Shown in pieces: positions 2,474 through 6,255 of a stretch of 6,255 nucleotides of DNA. The number at the start of each line of letters is the position of its first letter. The stretch's first letter is position 1. Origin of the DNA: a virus. Lineage: Duplodnaviria > Heunggongvirae > Uroviricota > Caudoviricetes. The notes under the pieces are model-generated. The model worked only from the letters and a program-made list of their open reading frames with translations, searched no databases and was not told the DNA's origin. The stretch lies in IMG/VR virus record IMGVR_UViG_2778261454_000001. One strand, given 5' to 3'. A program made the translations under genes and the position numbers.

Positions 2474-2746
2474 ATGGATATTGGTACTATTTTGGCACTT
2501 GTTATTTCTGGTTGTGTATTTGTATATACCATATTTCGTGATAATACAAAAGATACAGATGATCTACTTACTCGTGTTAGTGAAATTGAGACTAAACAGG
2601 CAGTACAGGAATCAAGTATTACTCGTATTGAAACGGATCAAGATAAAATGAGAGATTCACTATCTAAACTAGAAGCACAGATCCATGATTTAGATGTTAA
2701 GATTGAAAAGATTATTACTATTCTTGAACAGAAGCAGAAACAATAA
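2474..2746 (+). CDS. Small membrane-anchored coiled-coil protein (90 aa); candidate lysis accessory (holin / antiholin / i-spanin-like)
   Basis: AAGGA (2459-2463) upstream of the ATG. N-terminal hydrophobic helix IGTILALVISGCVFVYTIF, then a charged heptad-like segment. Convergent with the endolysin and ended by the intrinsic terminator. Confidence 0.6.
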   Translation: MDIGTILALVISGCVFVYTIFRDNTKDTDDLLTRVSEIETKQAVQESSITRIETDQDKMRDSLSKLEAQIHDLDVKIEKIITILEQKQKQ

Positions 2747-2750
2747 GCGA

Positions 2751-2792
2751 AAAAAGGCAAGCTACTGATATAGTAGCTTGCCTTTTGTTTTA
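2751..2792. terminator. Bidirectional rho-independent terminator between convergent genes
   Basis: Perfect 11-bp stem GGCAAGCTACT / AGTAGCTTGCC (2756-2766 / 2772-2782) with 5-nt loop, flanked by AAAAA on one side and TTTTGTTTT on the other, so it is followed by a U-tract on either strand. Confidence 0.8.
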
Positions 2793-3239
2793 TTTGTTAG
2801 TTAATGCGGCAATCATTTGATCTACGCGGTTTGGGGTTTGTTTGTACCAATGGGAATCTTTAGCTTGTTTAATTGCTTCAGGATAGTTCTTTTCCTTAAG
2901 TGCTTTTAACATCTTCTTAAACTTCATAGTACCAGCTAAGCCTAATTGGAAAATCATAATTACCATAAAGTCACGCCAATCATTAGGAAGCCAGATATCA
3001 AGAGTATCTAGGTTATGTTGTGCGATCATTATGTCATGGTCTAATAGTTCTTCTGCCTGTACCTCAGTAATACCGTTTGGATAACTTTCACCATGTGTAA
3101 TTAGATGACCATAACCAATCGTTTGATACCCTAATGAATCAGCATATGGATAAAACCTATCATTTCGATAGTACTTCAATGTTGCTTGATACTCTTTAGT
3201 ACCTTCATATTGTTTTAATCTTGTCTTTAAATCACTCAT
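2790..3239 (-). CDS. Endolysin, T4-lysozyme-like (glycoside hydrolase family 24 muramidase)
   Basis: From the internal ATG (rc of 3237-3239) the protein aligns by eye to T4 lysozyme: QYEG…ADSLGYQTIGYGH (Glu/Asp/Thr catalytic positions conserved), MIFQLGLAGTMKF, and HWYKQTPNR versus T4 SRWYNQTPNR. The track ORF starts 20 codons upstream at a GTG, which I consider less likely. No signal peptide or SAR segment, so it should need a holin. Confidence 0.85.
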   Translation of the reverse strand: MSDLKTRLKQYEGTKEYQATLKYYRNDRFYPYADSLGYQTIGYGHLITHGESYPNGITEVQAEELLDHDIMIAQHNLDTLDIWLPNDWRDFMVIMIFQLGLAGTMKFKKMLKALKEKNYPEAIKQAKDSHWYKQTPNRVDQMIAALTNK

Positions 3240-3242
3240 TAA

Positions 3243-3276
3243 TAAATACCTATAGTTAATTTTATATAGGTATTTA
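3243..3276. promoter_or_regulatory. Perfect 12-bp inverted repeat TAAATACCTATA / TATAGGTATTTA with 10-bp spacer, filling the divergent intergenic region
   Basis: Read directly. Each arm ends 3 nt from a start codon (minus ATG at 3237-3239, plus ATG at 3280-3282), so both genes have nearly identical leaders (TATAGGTATTTA-YTW-ATG). Confidence 0.5.
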
Positions 3277-3279
3277 CTT

Positions 3280-3726
3280 ATGGATATACAGATCCCCACG
3301 GAATGGGAATATACAGAAGATTGGGATAAGCGTACTTTGACTAATGGTGATTACGTAGGGTTTGTTTATCTGTTTCAATTTGAGGATGGTAGTACATACA
3401 TCGGTTCAAAACAGATGTATAAACGTGTTAAAGAGATTAAGAAACTTAAACCTACTTCAGAAAGTAACAATTGGGAAAACTATACAAGTAGTTCAAAGAT
3501 AGTTAATCAAAAGATCACAGATGGTGAAAAGTACTGTAAAACTATTCTCTATGCGTTTCCAACTATGCGTGAAACATTACTAGTAGAATCAATTTTGATA
3601 CTACATGAAATGTTGAAACCCAATTGTTTAAATCTCGCAATGATGACGAAGATCAGATCACCAAATGCTAAAGATAAAAAACATCTTTTAGGCATAGTAC
3701 AAGAGCTATTGGAAATATTGAGGTAA
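3280..3726 (+). CDS. GIY-YIG-type nuclease (148 aa): free-standing homing-endonuclease-like or Endo II-like
   Basis: Motifs in GIY-YIG order and spacing: GFVYLF (GIY-like), 8 aa, STYIGSK (YIG), then a conserved Arg (YKRVKE) and later Glu/Asn (LLVESILI…PNCLN). Short, with no obvious extra DNA-binding domain. Confidence 0.55.
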   Translation: MDIQIPTEWEYTEDWDKRTLTNGDYVGFVYLFQFEDGSTYIGSKQMYKRVKEIKKLKPTSESNNWENYTSSSKIVNQKITDGEKYCKTILYAFPTMRETLLVESILILHEMLKPNCLNLAMMTKIRSPNAKDKKHLLGIVQELLEILR

Positions 3727-3730
3727 ATAC

Positions 3731-4309
3731 ATGGCAAGCAGAATAAACGGGATTAGTAGTACTCAGAGTTATATAAAAACTGAAGGTACTAAACTGGGTA
3801 AACTTTTTAATGATGAAATAATTAAACGCTCAAGGCTACTATCCCAAAAAGTACAAGCAGATTTAAATAACTCAGTAGATCGCGGGGCGGTTCCCTTCAC
3901 TCAGAGATCAGTACTGTTTTTTTATAAAAAGAATGGCAAGCAATCAGTAACAGCTACCATTATGATTAAAAATATTCAAGCACAGTATCTATACAATATC
4001 ATTGTTGAACAAAAAACGATTGATAAATTTGTACCTACTAGTATTGCTCGTTTGGATAAGTATGGAAATATTTCAGGATTACGAAAAGGTTTATCAAGTG
4101 GGAAGTACAAGATAGTTAAATCTAAGAATGGTAAAGAACGTTTAATTGATACTACTAAGAAAGATACTAAGAAGAAAACCAAACGTGTAGTTGGTCTAAG
4201 AGAAGAGAAACGCCGTAAGATTATCTATGACTTCTATGGGGAAGTAGATAAAGGTGTAAGAGTAGTAATGAGTGGTATTGAAGGTACATTTAGGATTAGA
4301 AAGAAATGA
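3731..4309 (+). CDS. Hypothetical protein (192 aa) with a strongly basic C-terminal region
   Basis: GAGG (3720-3723) lies 7 nt upstream of ATG 3731. Long ORF with a Lys/Arg-rich C-terminal third (…KSKNGKERLIDTTKKDTKKKTKRVVGLREEKRRK…). Its stop overlaps the next start (ATGA). No family recognised. Confidence 0.6.
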   Translation: MASRINGISSTQSYIKTEGTKLGKLFNDEIIKRSRLLSQKVQADLNNSVDRGAVPFTQRSVLFFYKKNGKQSVTATIMIKNIQAQYLYNIIVEQKTIDKFVPTSIARLDKYGNISGLRKGLSSGKYKIVKSKNGKERLIDTTKKDTKKKTKRVVGLREEKRRKIIYDFYGEVDKGVRVVMSGIEGTFRIRKK

Positions 4310-4617
4310 ATTTTGAACAACATTATGAAGAATTAACAAGTGAAATTAAATTAGGTGGTGTAACACCTAATGGTAATTCAATGCCAATTAATAAAATGTT
4401 TCTTGGTAAAAAGTTTCAAAAGATCATCAAGAATAGTACTCACAATGTGGATAGTTATATGAATGTGATCTTTGAAAAAAAGCAAACCTTTAAAGATGGT
4501 GAAGTACTTGAATGGGAACTACAGGGTGAAGTATTACCCGTGTTTGTAATTGAGTATAAAAAGCTATTCGTAAAAGGTAAACACTTTCATGTATACGCAG
4601 TGGGGATTATTGAATGA
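4306..4617 (+). CDS. Hypothetical protein (103 aa)
   Basis: ATGA overlap with both the upstream and downstream genes, indicating translational coupling. No recognisable motif. Confidence 0.5.
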   Translation: MNFEQHYEELTSEIKLGGVTPNGNSMPINKMFLGKKFQKIIKNSTHNVDSYMNVIFEKKQTFKDGEVLEWELQGEVLPVFVIEYKKLFVKGKHFHVYAVGIIE

Positions 4618-4907
4618 TAGGTGTAATACTAGAACTGCTATCTAAAGGAATGGACTTCTTTATCAAGAGAAAAACCATTCAAGCAGATGTAGAAAAAACA
4701 AATGCCGAAGGGCAAATAGAAACCAACAAAGAAGAGATTGAAAAGGTATCATTCCATTGGCGTAATGCTCTTGGATTTGTGATCACCCTAATCATCCTCT
4801 ATAACTGGATCATAGTACCAGTACTGGATGCTTTTGGTATTGTGGTTATCCAAGTACCATTAGGACAACTACTGCAAGTACTTCTAATCATGGTTGGTGG
4901 TTCATAA
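4614..4907 (+). CDS. Putative holin (97 aa, 2-3 TM; resembles the 3TM GTA-type holin family)
   Basis: GGGGA (4602-4606) lies 7 nt upstream. Hydrophilic N-terminal part then two clear hydrophobic helices (ALGFVITLIILYNWIIVPVL and FGIVVIQVPLGQLLQVLLIMVGG). The HWRNALGF…LYNWIIVP segment matches my recollection of the W-R-P…G-W…Y-N-F signature of that family; not verified. Confidence 0.55.
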   Translation: MIGVILELLSKGMDFFIKRKTIQADVEKTNAEGQIETNKEEIEKVSFHWRNALGFVITLIILYNWIIVPVLDAFGIVVIQVPLGQLLQVLLIMVGGS

Positions 4908-4934
4908 AAAAAGCCCCATTACGGGGCTTTTTTT
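4906..4934. terminator. Bidirectional rho-independent terminator
   Basis: Stem AGCCCC / GGGGCT (4912-4917 / 4923-4928) with 5-nt loop, flanked by an A6 run and a T7 run. It lies between the stop at 4905-4907 (plus) and the stop at 4936-4938 (minus). Confidence 0.8.
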
Positions 4935-4935
4935 G

Positions 4936-6048
4936 TCAGAGATTAAATTCACTAAAGAGCCAATGTTGTTTGCTTAGTGGAATTACAAAGTTTGTCCCTT
5001 TAGGATCTCTACTACGATTTGGTGTTATAATTCTATCAAATGTCGCGTGATATATAGTATCCATTTTTATTCCTTTGTACAGTAATCCATGTACATATCT
5101 ATTCAAAAATCCAGCTATAATATCTGCTATTTGTATACCAGTACTATCTTTAGAATCTTTGAATATCAATTTTGGGGTTTCAATAACTTTGAAATCACAT
5201 GTAGGGATTTTTGGCATAATATCTACATTGACTGTTTTTATCTCAGAGATACAAAAGTCTAATGTGCTAGCAAATTCGCTAGAGGTATCATGTGTTAATA
5301 CGATGTCGGATAGTTTTCTTTTATGAATTTTATTGAGGCGAGCAATCTGGTTATAGAAACTATGTACGTTAGGCAGTAGTTTTATAACATTTCCATTACT
5401 ATCTAAATCTGGAATAGGTACAAACCATTTAATAGCTACATCTGCTGAGTATCTACTTTTTCTGTATTCAAATTCTTGTAAAGTTTTATCGAACATTCTG
5501 CATGTGCCGCCATTATCATCTAGTGGATTACTTTCACTAGAAAAGAATTCTTTCAGGCTCTCAATACATATGTTCAACTTTTCTTCGGATGGGTCTTTAC
5601 ATAACTCAGAGAATGTAGTGAAACAAATTTCTGGTGCAAATGTACTTATTATGTCTACCAATATGTTTCTTACTAACAGCAATTCATTGCTGTCTTCATT
5701 CTCCATTGCAGGTACTATAAGTTGATTTACTATAGAAACTGCTACGTTACACTTTTTATCCATTACTTCACATACTAAAGTGTATTTTTCATCAATTACG
5801 AAATCAACTAATTCGTATACTAGTTCTGGATTTTTAATATAATAATCTTGGGATTTCAGTTCAATTGATTCATCTATGCCGTGTCTTTTCTTCAAGGCAC
5901 GTACAAAACCTTTCATTCTACTAATTTTCCCTTCTGCTACTCCCACGCATGAATGAGTGAAAAGGGGCTGATTAGCAAATCCCATGTCATTTTTTTTATT
6001 AATCAAATCACCTGTGTTACCACTTTCATCTAAGAAATATTCCATCAT
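4936..6048 (-). CDS. DUF3800-like protein (about 370 aa), possible RNase-H-like-fold enzyme
   Basis: N-terminal MMEYFLDESGNTGD and C-terminal GIQIADIIAGFLNR match the DESG and Q-x-A-D signatures I recall for DUF3800. The track ORF begins at a TTG (6058-6060); I place the start at ATG rc(6046-6048), with GGGA about 9 nt upstream on the minus strand. Confidence 0.65.
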   Translation of the reverse strand: MMEYFLDESGNTGDLINKKNDMGFANQPLFTHSCVGVAEGKISRMKGFVRALKKRHGIDESIELKSQDYYIKNPELVYELVDFVIDEKYTLVCEVMDKKCNVAVSIVNQLIVPAMENEDSNELLLVRNILVDIISTFAPEICFTTFSELCKDPSEEKLNICIESLKEFFSSESNPLDDNGGTCRMFDKTLQEFEYRKSRYSADVAIKWFVPIPDLDSNGNVIKLLPNVHSFYNQIARLNKIHKRKLSDIVLTHDTSSEFASTLDFCISEIKTVNVDIMPKIPTCDFKVIETPKLIFKDSKDSTGIQIADIIAGFLNRYVHGLLYKGIKMDTIYHATFDRIITPNRSRDPKGTNFVIPLSKQHWLFSEFNL

Positions 6049-6243
6049 TACCAATCCCAATCTACAGTAGTGTCCAATCCTCTCAGATTCGTATGTTCAG
6101 TACGTGTAGCCTGTAGAACGGTTTCACCAGTGGCGATAGAAACTATATCAAATGACTCTATTTCAGTTTGTCCAAGAGTGATCTTACCCAGCAATAGTGG
6201 ACACGCGGCTAAGTGAGTAAACTCTCAGTCAGAGGTGACTCAC

Positions 6244-6255
6244 ATGACAAAAACA
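6244..6255 (+). CDS. Start of a plus-strand gene running off the window (MTKT…)
   Basis: ATG 6244 is preceded by AGAGGTGA (6231-6238) at typical Shine-Dalgarno spacing. Only 4 codons are visible. Confidence 0.3.

Follow-up and report, generated by a model that had tools for sequence, protein, structure and literature searches.

A probable tail-completion gene and its small partner precede a predicted holin gene in an Enterobacterales prophage remnant

The viral DNA analysed here (Caudoviricetes; IMG/VR record IMGVR_UViG_2778261454_000001) is a stretch of 6,255 nucleotides, referred to throughout as the window, that carries three chained genes on its plus strand between positions 3731 and 4907. 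On balance, we favour the reading that this triad closes the late region (virion assembly plus lysis) of a temperate siphophage of the lambda-J type found in Enterobacterales, and that it encodes a tail-completion protein of 192 amino acids (aa), a lineage-specific partner of 103 aa and a holin of 97 aa. An initial annotation had read the third gene as a holin and had also considered a toxin or abortive-infection module. The triad belongs to ordinary phage assembly and lysis and is not a toxin or defence module.

Results

The three open reading frames run from 3731 to 4309, from 4306 to 4617 and from 4614 to 4907, and are chained by two ATGA overlaps, exactly as first described. The ATGA at 4306-4309 combines the stop codon of the 192-aa frame with the start codon of the 103-aa frame, and that at 4614-4617 does the same for the 103-aa and 97-aa frames. 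We scanned IMG/VR for the pattern of the 192-aa family and obtained 67 loci on contigs of about 30 kb. In about 66 of the 67, the genes for J (the lambda-J-type tail-tip protein), a 99-aa protein, a 255-aa protein, a coiled-coil protein, lysozyme, a GIY-YIG nuclease, the 192-aa protein, the 103-aa protein and the holin follow one another in this order. Between this block and the contig end there are 1-3.5 kb, and the genes from lysozyme to holin always come just after J, at the prophage end. E. coli prophages in ybhA (ybhA/pgl) carry the same block, with proteins 37-99% identical to those of the window. The triad is thus conserved as a unit, which the initial annotation had proposed to check, and the locus survey places it next to an endolysin gene in all relatives.

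The 192-aa protein (3731-4309, plus strand) is probably a tail-completion protein, a remote relative of lambda gpZ, HK97 gp10 and Neck1. As the initial annotation noted, it is very basic (isoelectric point 10.4; 44 lysines and arginines against 17 aspartates and glutamates), and its C-terminal region, residues 111-192 with 26 lysines and arginines, is the part densest in basic residues. The nucleic-acid binding suggested on this ground would fit the known tail-completion proteins, which share such basic patches: in the 80alpha/SaPI1 neck, the tail-completion protein contacts the DNA end and the tape measure protein. The family is small, with 57 clusters at 90% identity and 52 at 50% identity among 1.84 billion proteins, and it is seen in Enterobacter, Escherichia, Pantoea, Cedecea, Phytobacter, Erwinia and Shigella.

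A chain of profile matches links this family to tail-completion proteins. In PHROGs, the window protein weakly matches phrog_1924 'minor tail protein' (E=6e-4); 13 of 36 family members match the same group, and three match phrog_27 'tail completion or Neck1 protein'. When searched against the 1.84 billion proteins, the family profile finds a protein (P0134, E=2.4e-4) that is a full-length member of phrog_1924 (1.6e-45) and also matches phrog_27 at 1e-8. Over its whole length, P0134 further aligns with Pfam Minor_tail_Z (PF06763), the family of lambda gpZ, at 3e-4 and 21.1 bits, below the cut-off of 23.9. Lambda gpZ is itself 192 aa long, and hhalign gives a collinear, weak local match of residues 118-143 to gpZ 125-151 (E=0.037).

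In the predicted model of the 192-aa protein, a long helix at the N-terminus is followed by a beta insertion and by a helix at the C-terminus, the architecture that the 80alpha paper describes for the lambda-type tail-completion protein. It has the two long side-by-side helices with a small beta-sheet or insertion that characterise the fold of tail-completion proteins. Its top structural match, and the only one above noise, is 80alpha gp51, the one solved tail-completion protein. The 192-aa protein would then be the counterpart of lambda gpZ, HK97 gp10, SPP1 gp16.1 and 80alpha gp51 and, by analogy with 80alpha and SPP1, would sit inside the top of the tail. Loss of SPP1 gp16.1 or lambda gpZ lowers phage titre 100-500-fold.

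Tail-completion genes normally lie between the head-completion and tail-terminator genes. In a related E. coli prophage, the slot between capsid and tail-tube genes holds only a gpFII-like 99-aa gene and an unassigned 145-aa gene, a candidate tail terminator, without any tail-completion match; in this lineage, the tail-completion gene therefore appears to be at the far end of the late region. In the related prophage of E. coli MG48 (L071, 13963-18473; ESBLEC_MG48, NZ_CM132639.1, about 3.123-3.158 Mb), the head genes are separated from the tail-tube genes by two large genes. One encodes a 563-aa protein with a tail-tube-like N-terminus fused to a tail-fibre-like C-terminus, and the other a 940-aa 'tail protein'; this unusual arrangement may point to decorated tail tubes or neck fibres.

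The 103-aa protein (4306-4617, plus strand) is an orphan and the conserved partner of the 192-aa gene. Its family occurs in Enterobacterales only and has the invariant residues P21, N24, S25 and K90-G91. In the E. coli prophages, its 106-aa counterpart is recognised only by position and weak profile similarity. The protein has no match in Pfam, NCBIfam, PADLOC or PHROGs, and its family has none to lambda gpU or gpFII by hhalign. The family profile found nothing among PDB sequences, with chance-level matches only after the alignment was widened, and a widened profile search returned further hypothetical Enterobacterales proteins only. The predicted model is a confident split beta-barrel with a PilZ-like fold. 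This barrel is generic, as FMN (flavin mononucleotide)-binding proteins and phage hub or connector domains match the model at similar Z, and Foldseek against viral predicted structures gave no match at E<=0.001.

A partner role is suggested by the only distant lineage found, represented by the Escherichia phage record DCP80 (L073, PQ671644.1). Its gene order is J-like, membrane coiled-coil, endonuclease VII homologue, 192-like, 103-like and lysozyme, and we detected no homologue of the window holin in the 12-kb region examined. Since the gene pair stays together there with this holin undetected, the 103-aa protein would act with the 192-aa protein and not with the holin, most likely in virion assembly. 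DCP80 is recorded as a T4-like Gaprivervirus. Its first ~26 kb share the architecture described here and make up the structural and lysis module of a siphophage. Behind them come T4-like fragments, and rIIA occurs as two oppositely oriented copies. We consequently rejected DCP80 as a T4-like phage bearing the gene pair: the record appears to be a chimeric assembly, and the pair lies in its siphophage part.

For the 97-aa protein (4614-4907, plus strand), the best reading is a holin from the PF11351 (GTA_holin_3TM, or '3TM-type') family, a prediction from profile matches, hydropathy and context that agrees with the initial annotation. It scores 25.0 bits against PF11351, for which the cut-off is 24.8 (E=2.8e-5), and it matches phrog_3427 'holin' (E=5e-5). 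An E. coli protein that is 86% identical (WP_047400628.1) carries the RefSeq name '3TM-type holin'. Members of PF11351 studied as holins are the putative holin TeaA of ICP1 and the gene transfer agent (GTA) holin that names the family. Like these, the 97-aa protein is small and linked to an endolysin, and its C-terminal hydrophobic stretch, at about residues 45-97, is long enough for two transmembrane helices, in line with the membrane location first proposed. In the window, as in essentially all relatives, the gene for a T4-type lysozyme is found 1.4 kb upstream of it. Conserved phage genes end with the holin gene, beyond which variable cargo or the attachment site begins. From family and context, the holin would permeabilise the inner membrane and so let the divergently encoded lysozyme reach the wall.

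Several findings weigh against this set of assignments. For the 192-aa protein, every curated threshold is missed: the window protein reaches none in Pfam (PF06763 and PF04883, HK97-gp10_like, were tested) or NCBIfam and has no PADLOC match, and the family profile matches no PDB sequence. Direct hhalign comparison of the family with lambda gpZ is not significant (E=0.037, as above, and 0.18), and the confidence of the structural model is moderate. Unlike the usual tail-completion genes, this one follows J and lies inside the lysis cassette, between endolysin and holin, in all relatives, and its family is lineage-restricted. The proposed role of the 103-aa protein is drawn solely from its adjacency. 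For the holin, the Pfam score exceeds the cut-off by 0.2 bits, and the match covers profile positions 43-116 of 123, the C-terminal two thirds; NCBIfam gave nothing. The protein shows only two clear transmembrane helices against the three of PF11351. In place of a clear first helix, its N-terminus forms a short amphipathic helix; residues 1-17 are only moderately hydrophobic and carry E7, K11 and D14, and a charged, acidic linker of roughly 30 residues follows. In a further difference from PF11351 holins, three non-lysis genes separate the window holin from its endolysin.

The close packing of these genes is conserved and not accidental. The ATGA overlap between the 103-aa gene and the holin gene is kept in 49 of about 60 related loci. 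At the junction of the 192-aa and 103-aa genes, spacing ranges from -4 to +5 nt in 58 of about 60 loci, only 14 of which have the ATGA overlap. The fixed stoichiometry that the initial annotation deduced from the overlaps is therefore only weakly founded, as relatives do not keep the first overlap. Overlapping start and stop codons are usual in the late operons of phages and by themselves no proof that fixed stoichiometry is needed. Copy numbers also tell against it: a virion needs very few copies of a tail-completion protein (one in 80alpha), whereas holins build up to large numbers in each cell. The overlaps would reflect compact late-operon organisation, in which upstream translation at most feeds translation of the holin.

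The chain begins before position 3731. A 148-aa GIY-YIG gene (3280-3726, plus strand) ends 4 nt upstream of the 192-aa gene, so that the transcription unit comprises four genes rather than three. At its other end, this four-gene unit is predicted to be closed by a strong bidirectional intrinsic terminator at 4904-4936, common to the unit and the convergent DUF3800 gene. Folded directly, the hairpin has a stem of 14 bp (-19.1 kcal/mol, z=-5.45) and runs of A and of T at its two sides; a consensus terminator scan missed it because its T-run belongs to the stem. A sigma-70 promoter scan found fewer sites than expected by chance and no candidate promoter for the four-gene unit.

Upstream of the unit, the start codons of the lysozyme and GIY-YIG genes are separated by a gap of 40 bp that is a near-perfect palindrome (TAAATACCTATA ... 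TATAGGTATTTA). The palindrome at 3243-3276 can fold into a 12-bp stem (-12 kcal/mol) and holds the ribosome-binding site of one divergent gene in each arm. Of 48 distinct relatives, 37 retain nine or more matched pairs, where shuffling gives a mean of 6.4, and the changes in the arms look compensatory. In loci with a co-directional lysozyme gene, a hairpin likewise buries the ribosome-binding site upstream of the nuclease gene. The palindrome may be an operator, an RNA hairpin that masks translation starts, or merely a pair of mirrored initiation regions.

Gene-by-gene comparison of the loci reveals extensive mosaicism. The window and E. coli MG48 (L001 comparison) share a holin at 99% identity, whereas their adjacent 192-aa proteins are only 37% identical, and in another locus (L015) the 192-aa protein is 69% identical among neighbours that are all 88-100% identical. 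Holin alleles form groups at about 40% and about 80-99% identity; across loci, the holin is 36-99% identical while its neighbours stay at 60-90%. These contrasts imply recombination breakpoints between individual genes. The lysozyme gene is usually divergent and is co-directional with the holin unit in nine loci (L030, L032, L039, L040, L047, L050, L059, L060 and L065). As its strand differs among relatives, an inversion of the gene took place as the lineage evolved; two palindromic hairpins, at 2752-2786 and 3243-3276, flank it in the window.

Among the neighbouring genes, the first of the four-gene unit encodes a nuclease domain protein that matches PF19835 SegE_GIY-YIG (E=1e-15) and the PADLOC model 'HEase' (7e-8). 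Its catalytic domain resembles in sequence the GIY-YIG homing endonucleases of the T4 SegE type. Unlike these, the 148-aa protein consists of the catalytic domain only, with no DNA-binding domain found beside it in Pfam, and it is fixed at one position throughout the lineage. In the DCP80 lineage, a homologue of T4 endonuclease VII takes the slot (3280-3726 in the window, 5292-5759 in L003). That one slot hosts two unrelated nucleases suggests that some processing of DNA is required, for example debranching before packaging, and thus a housekeeping role for the 148-aa nuclease rather than homing.

The T4-type lysozyme, the endolysin (PF00959 Phage_lysozyme, E=6e-11), is encoded at 2790-3239 on the minus strand, divergently from the four-gene unit; starting at the ATG complementary to 3237-3239, it is 149 aa long, as in relatives. 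Convergent with it, and parted from it by the hairpin at 2752-2786 (16-bp stem) 3' of the gene, lies the gene for a 90-aa protein that combines a coiled coil with a membrane anchor at the N-terminus (2474-2746, plus strand), conserved between the J and lysozyme genes. This protein weakly matches phrog_7686 'Rz-like spanin' (E=4.8e-5), and the identical gene in intact prophages gives a weak DUF2730 match; it is probably a lysis accessory, either spanin-like or DUF2730-like. A simple lipobox scan for an outer-membrane spanin partner found none in the window. On the other side of the triad, the DUF3800 gene (4936-6060, minus strand), convergent with the holin gene, is variable cargo, present or absent among intact relatives with an identical 192-aa protein. 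It weakly matches the PADLOC candidate systems PDC-M04A and PDC-S51 and so may be a prophage-borne defence gene.

The window as a whole is a defective 6-kb prophage remnant bounded by two IS3 copies. When the whole window was searched by megablast, only its IS3 ends and its holin gene had matches in phages, plasmids or E. coli genomes. The 3' end of one IS3 matches positions 1-122, the 5' end of a second copy in the same orientation lies at 6179-6255, and phage DNA fills the space between them. The J gene is cut to the codons for its C-terminal 323 aa, which together with the IS3 ends on both sides identifies the remnant as defective; intact prophages with an identical 192-aa protein carry a full-length J of 1100 aa upstream. 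Enterobacter assemblies that encode the identical 192-aa protein include GCA_025409125.1 and GCA_036710435.1. After the J remnant come two small post-J genes, the 90-aa gene, lysozyme on the minus strand, the GIY-YIG gene, the triad and DUF3800. The remnant between its IS3 elements resembles a composite-transposon arrangement, and in the E. coli relative G3/10 an IS3 likewise lies just upstream of a shortened J gene.

Discussion

The alternative that survives best is that the 192-aa and 103-aa proteins are cytoplasmic lysis regulators, antiholin-like or timing factors recruited from a virion-protein fold, that act on the holin. Both genes always lie between endolysin and holin, the 103-aa gene is mostly joined to the holin gene by ATGA, and the hairpin that buries the ribosome-binding site of the unit's first gene is kept in both arrangements of the lysozyme gene and could gate the linked chain. 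However, the pair persists in DCP80 without a detected homologue of this holin in the region examined, and the holin allele has been exchanged independently of the pair, as its wider range of identities indicates. Both proteins lack a membrane segment and any resemblance to known antiholins, and the fold and profile evidence favours a tail-completion protein. We consider this alternative unlikely.

In another reading, to which we assign a distinctly low probability, the conserved four-gene unit would be a checkpoint that makes lysis depend on completion of the virion. Ribosomes would load at the binding site that the conserved palindrome or hairpin buries and translate from one overlapping gene to the next as far as the holin. 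The tail-completion-like and barrel proteins would have a second role as soluble regulators, and their use in tail assembly, or their binding to DNA ends, would set the timing of the holin.

It is also very improbable that the 148-, 192- and 103-aa genes are a selfish homing-endonuclease cassette with passengers, inserted by chance in the lysis cassette. The match of the 148-aa protein to SegE-type homing endonucleases, the presence of another nuclease family (endonuclease VII) before the same pair in DCP80 and the strong gene-by-gene mosaicism would all agree with such a cassette. Homing would lead one to expect sporadic presence, whereas the nuclease gene is intact at one site in nearly all relatives and has diverged like its neighbours (40-95% identity). 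The protein also lacks a DNA-binding domain beyond the catalytic one, and no relative has the uninterrupted lysozyme-holin pair that an empty site would present.

We see hardly any likelihood that the triad is a toxin/antitoxin, abortive-infection or defence module in which the basic protein binds nucleic acid, the small protein is an adaptor and the membrane protein is the effector, and dropped this reading. The layout is superficially similar, defence cargo is often found near prophage ends, and the neighbouring DUF3800 gene weakly matches candidate defence systems. Against this, none of the three proteins has a PADLOC match (E<=0.1), and in about 66 of 67 relatives the triad belongs to the fixed core of the late region, while real cargo such as the DUF3800 gene varies. 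The initial annotation had held that a toxin reading would fail if the first two proteins belonged to virion structural families and the triad always adjoined endolysin genes. Most of this is what we find: the first protein joins a virion family, and the third joins a holin family beside an endolysin in all relatives; the part concerning the 103-aa protein does not hold, as it matches no family.

PilZ domains are defined by two motifs, RxxxR and (D/N)xSxxG, and because neither was seen by eye in the 103-aa sequence or the family alignments, and there is no sequence similarity or Pfam match to PilZ and other barrels score nearly as well, we also dropped as most improbable the reading of this protein as a PilZ-type cyclic di-GMP receptor that links holin firing to the second-messenger state of the host.

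The locus gives no sign of new defence or toxin biology. What is mildly unusual is a tail-completion gene displaced into the lysis cassette with an orphan as its small partner. With the tail-completion reading, a 'hypothetical' Enterobacterales prophage family can be annotated as a probable tail-completion protein and the last gene of the triad as a holin, and the 103-aa beta-barrel family defined here becomes a candidate partner of the tail-completion protein. Gene position would then be an unsafe guide to tail-completion genes, which in this lineage appear to have moved from the neck-gene slot to a place between endolysin and holin.

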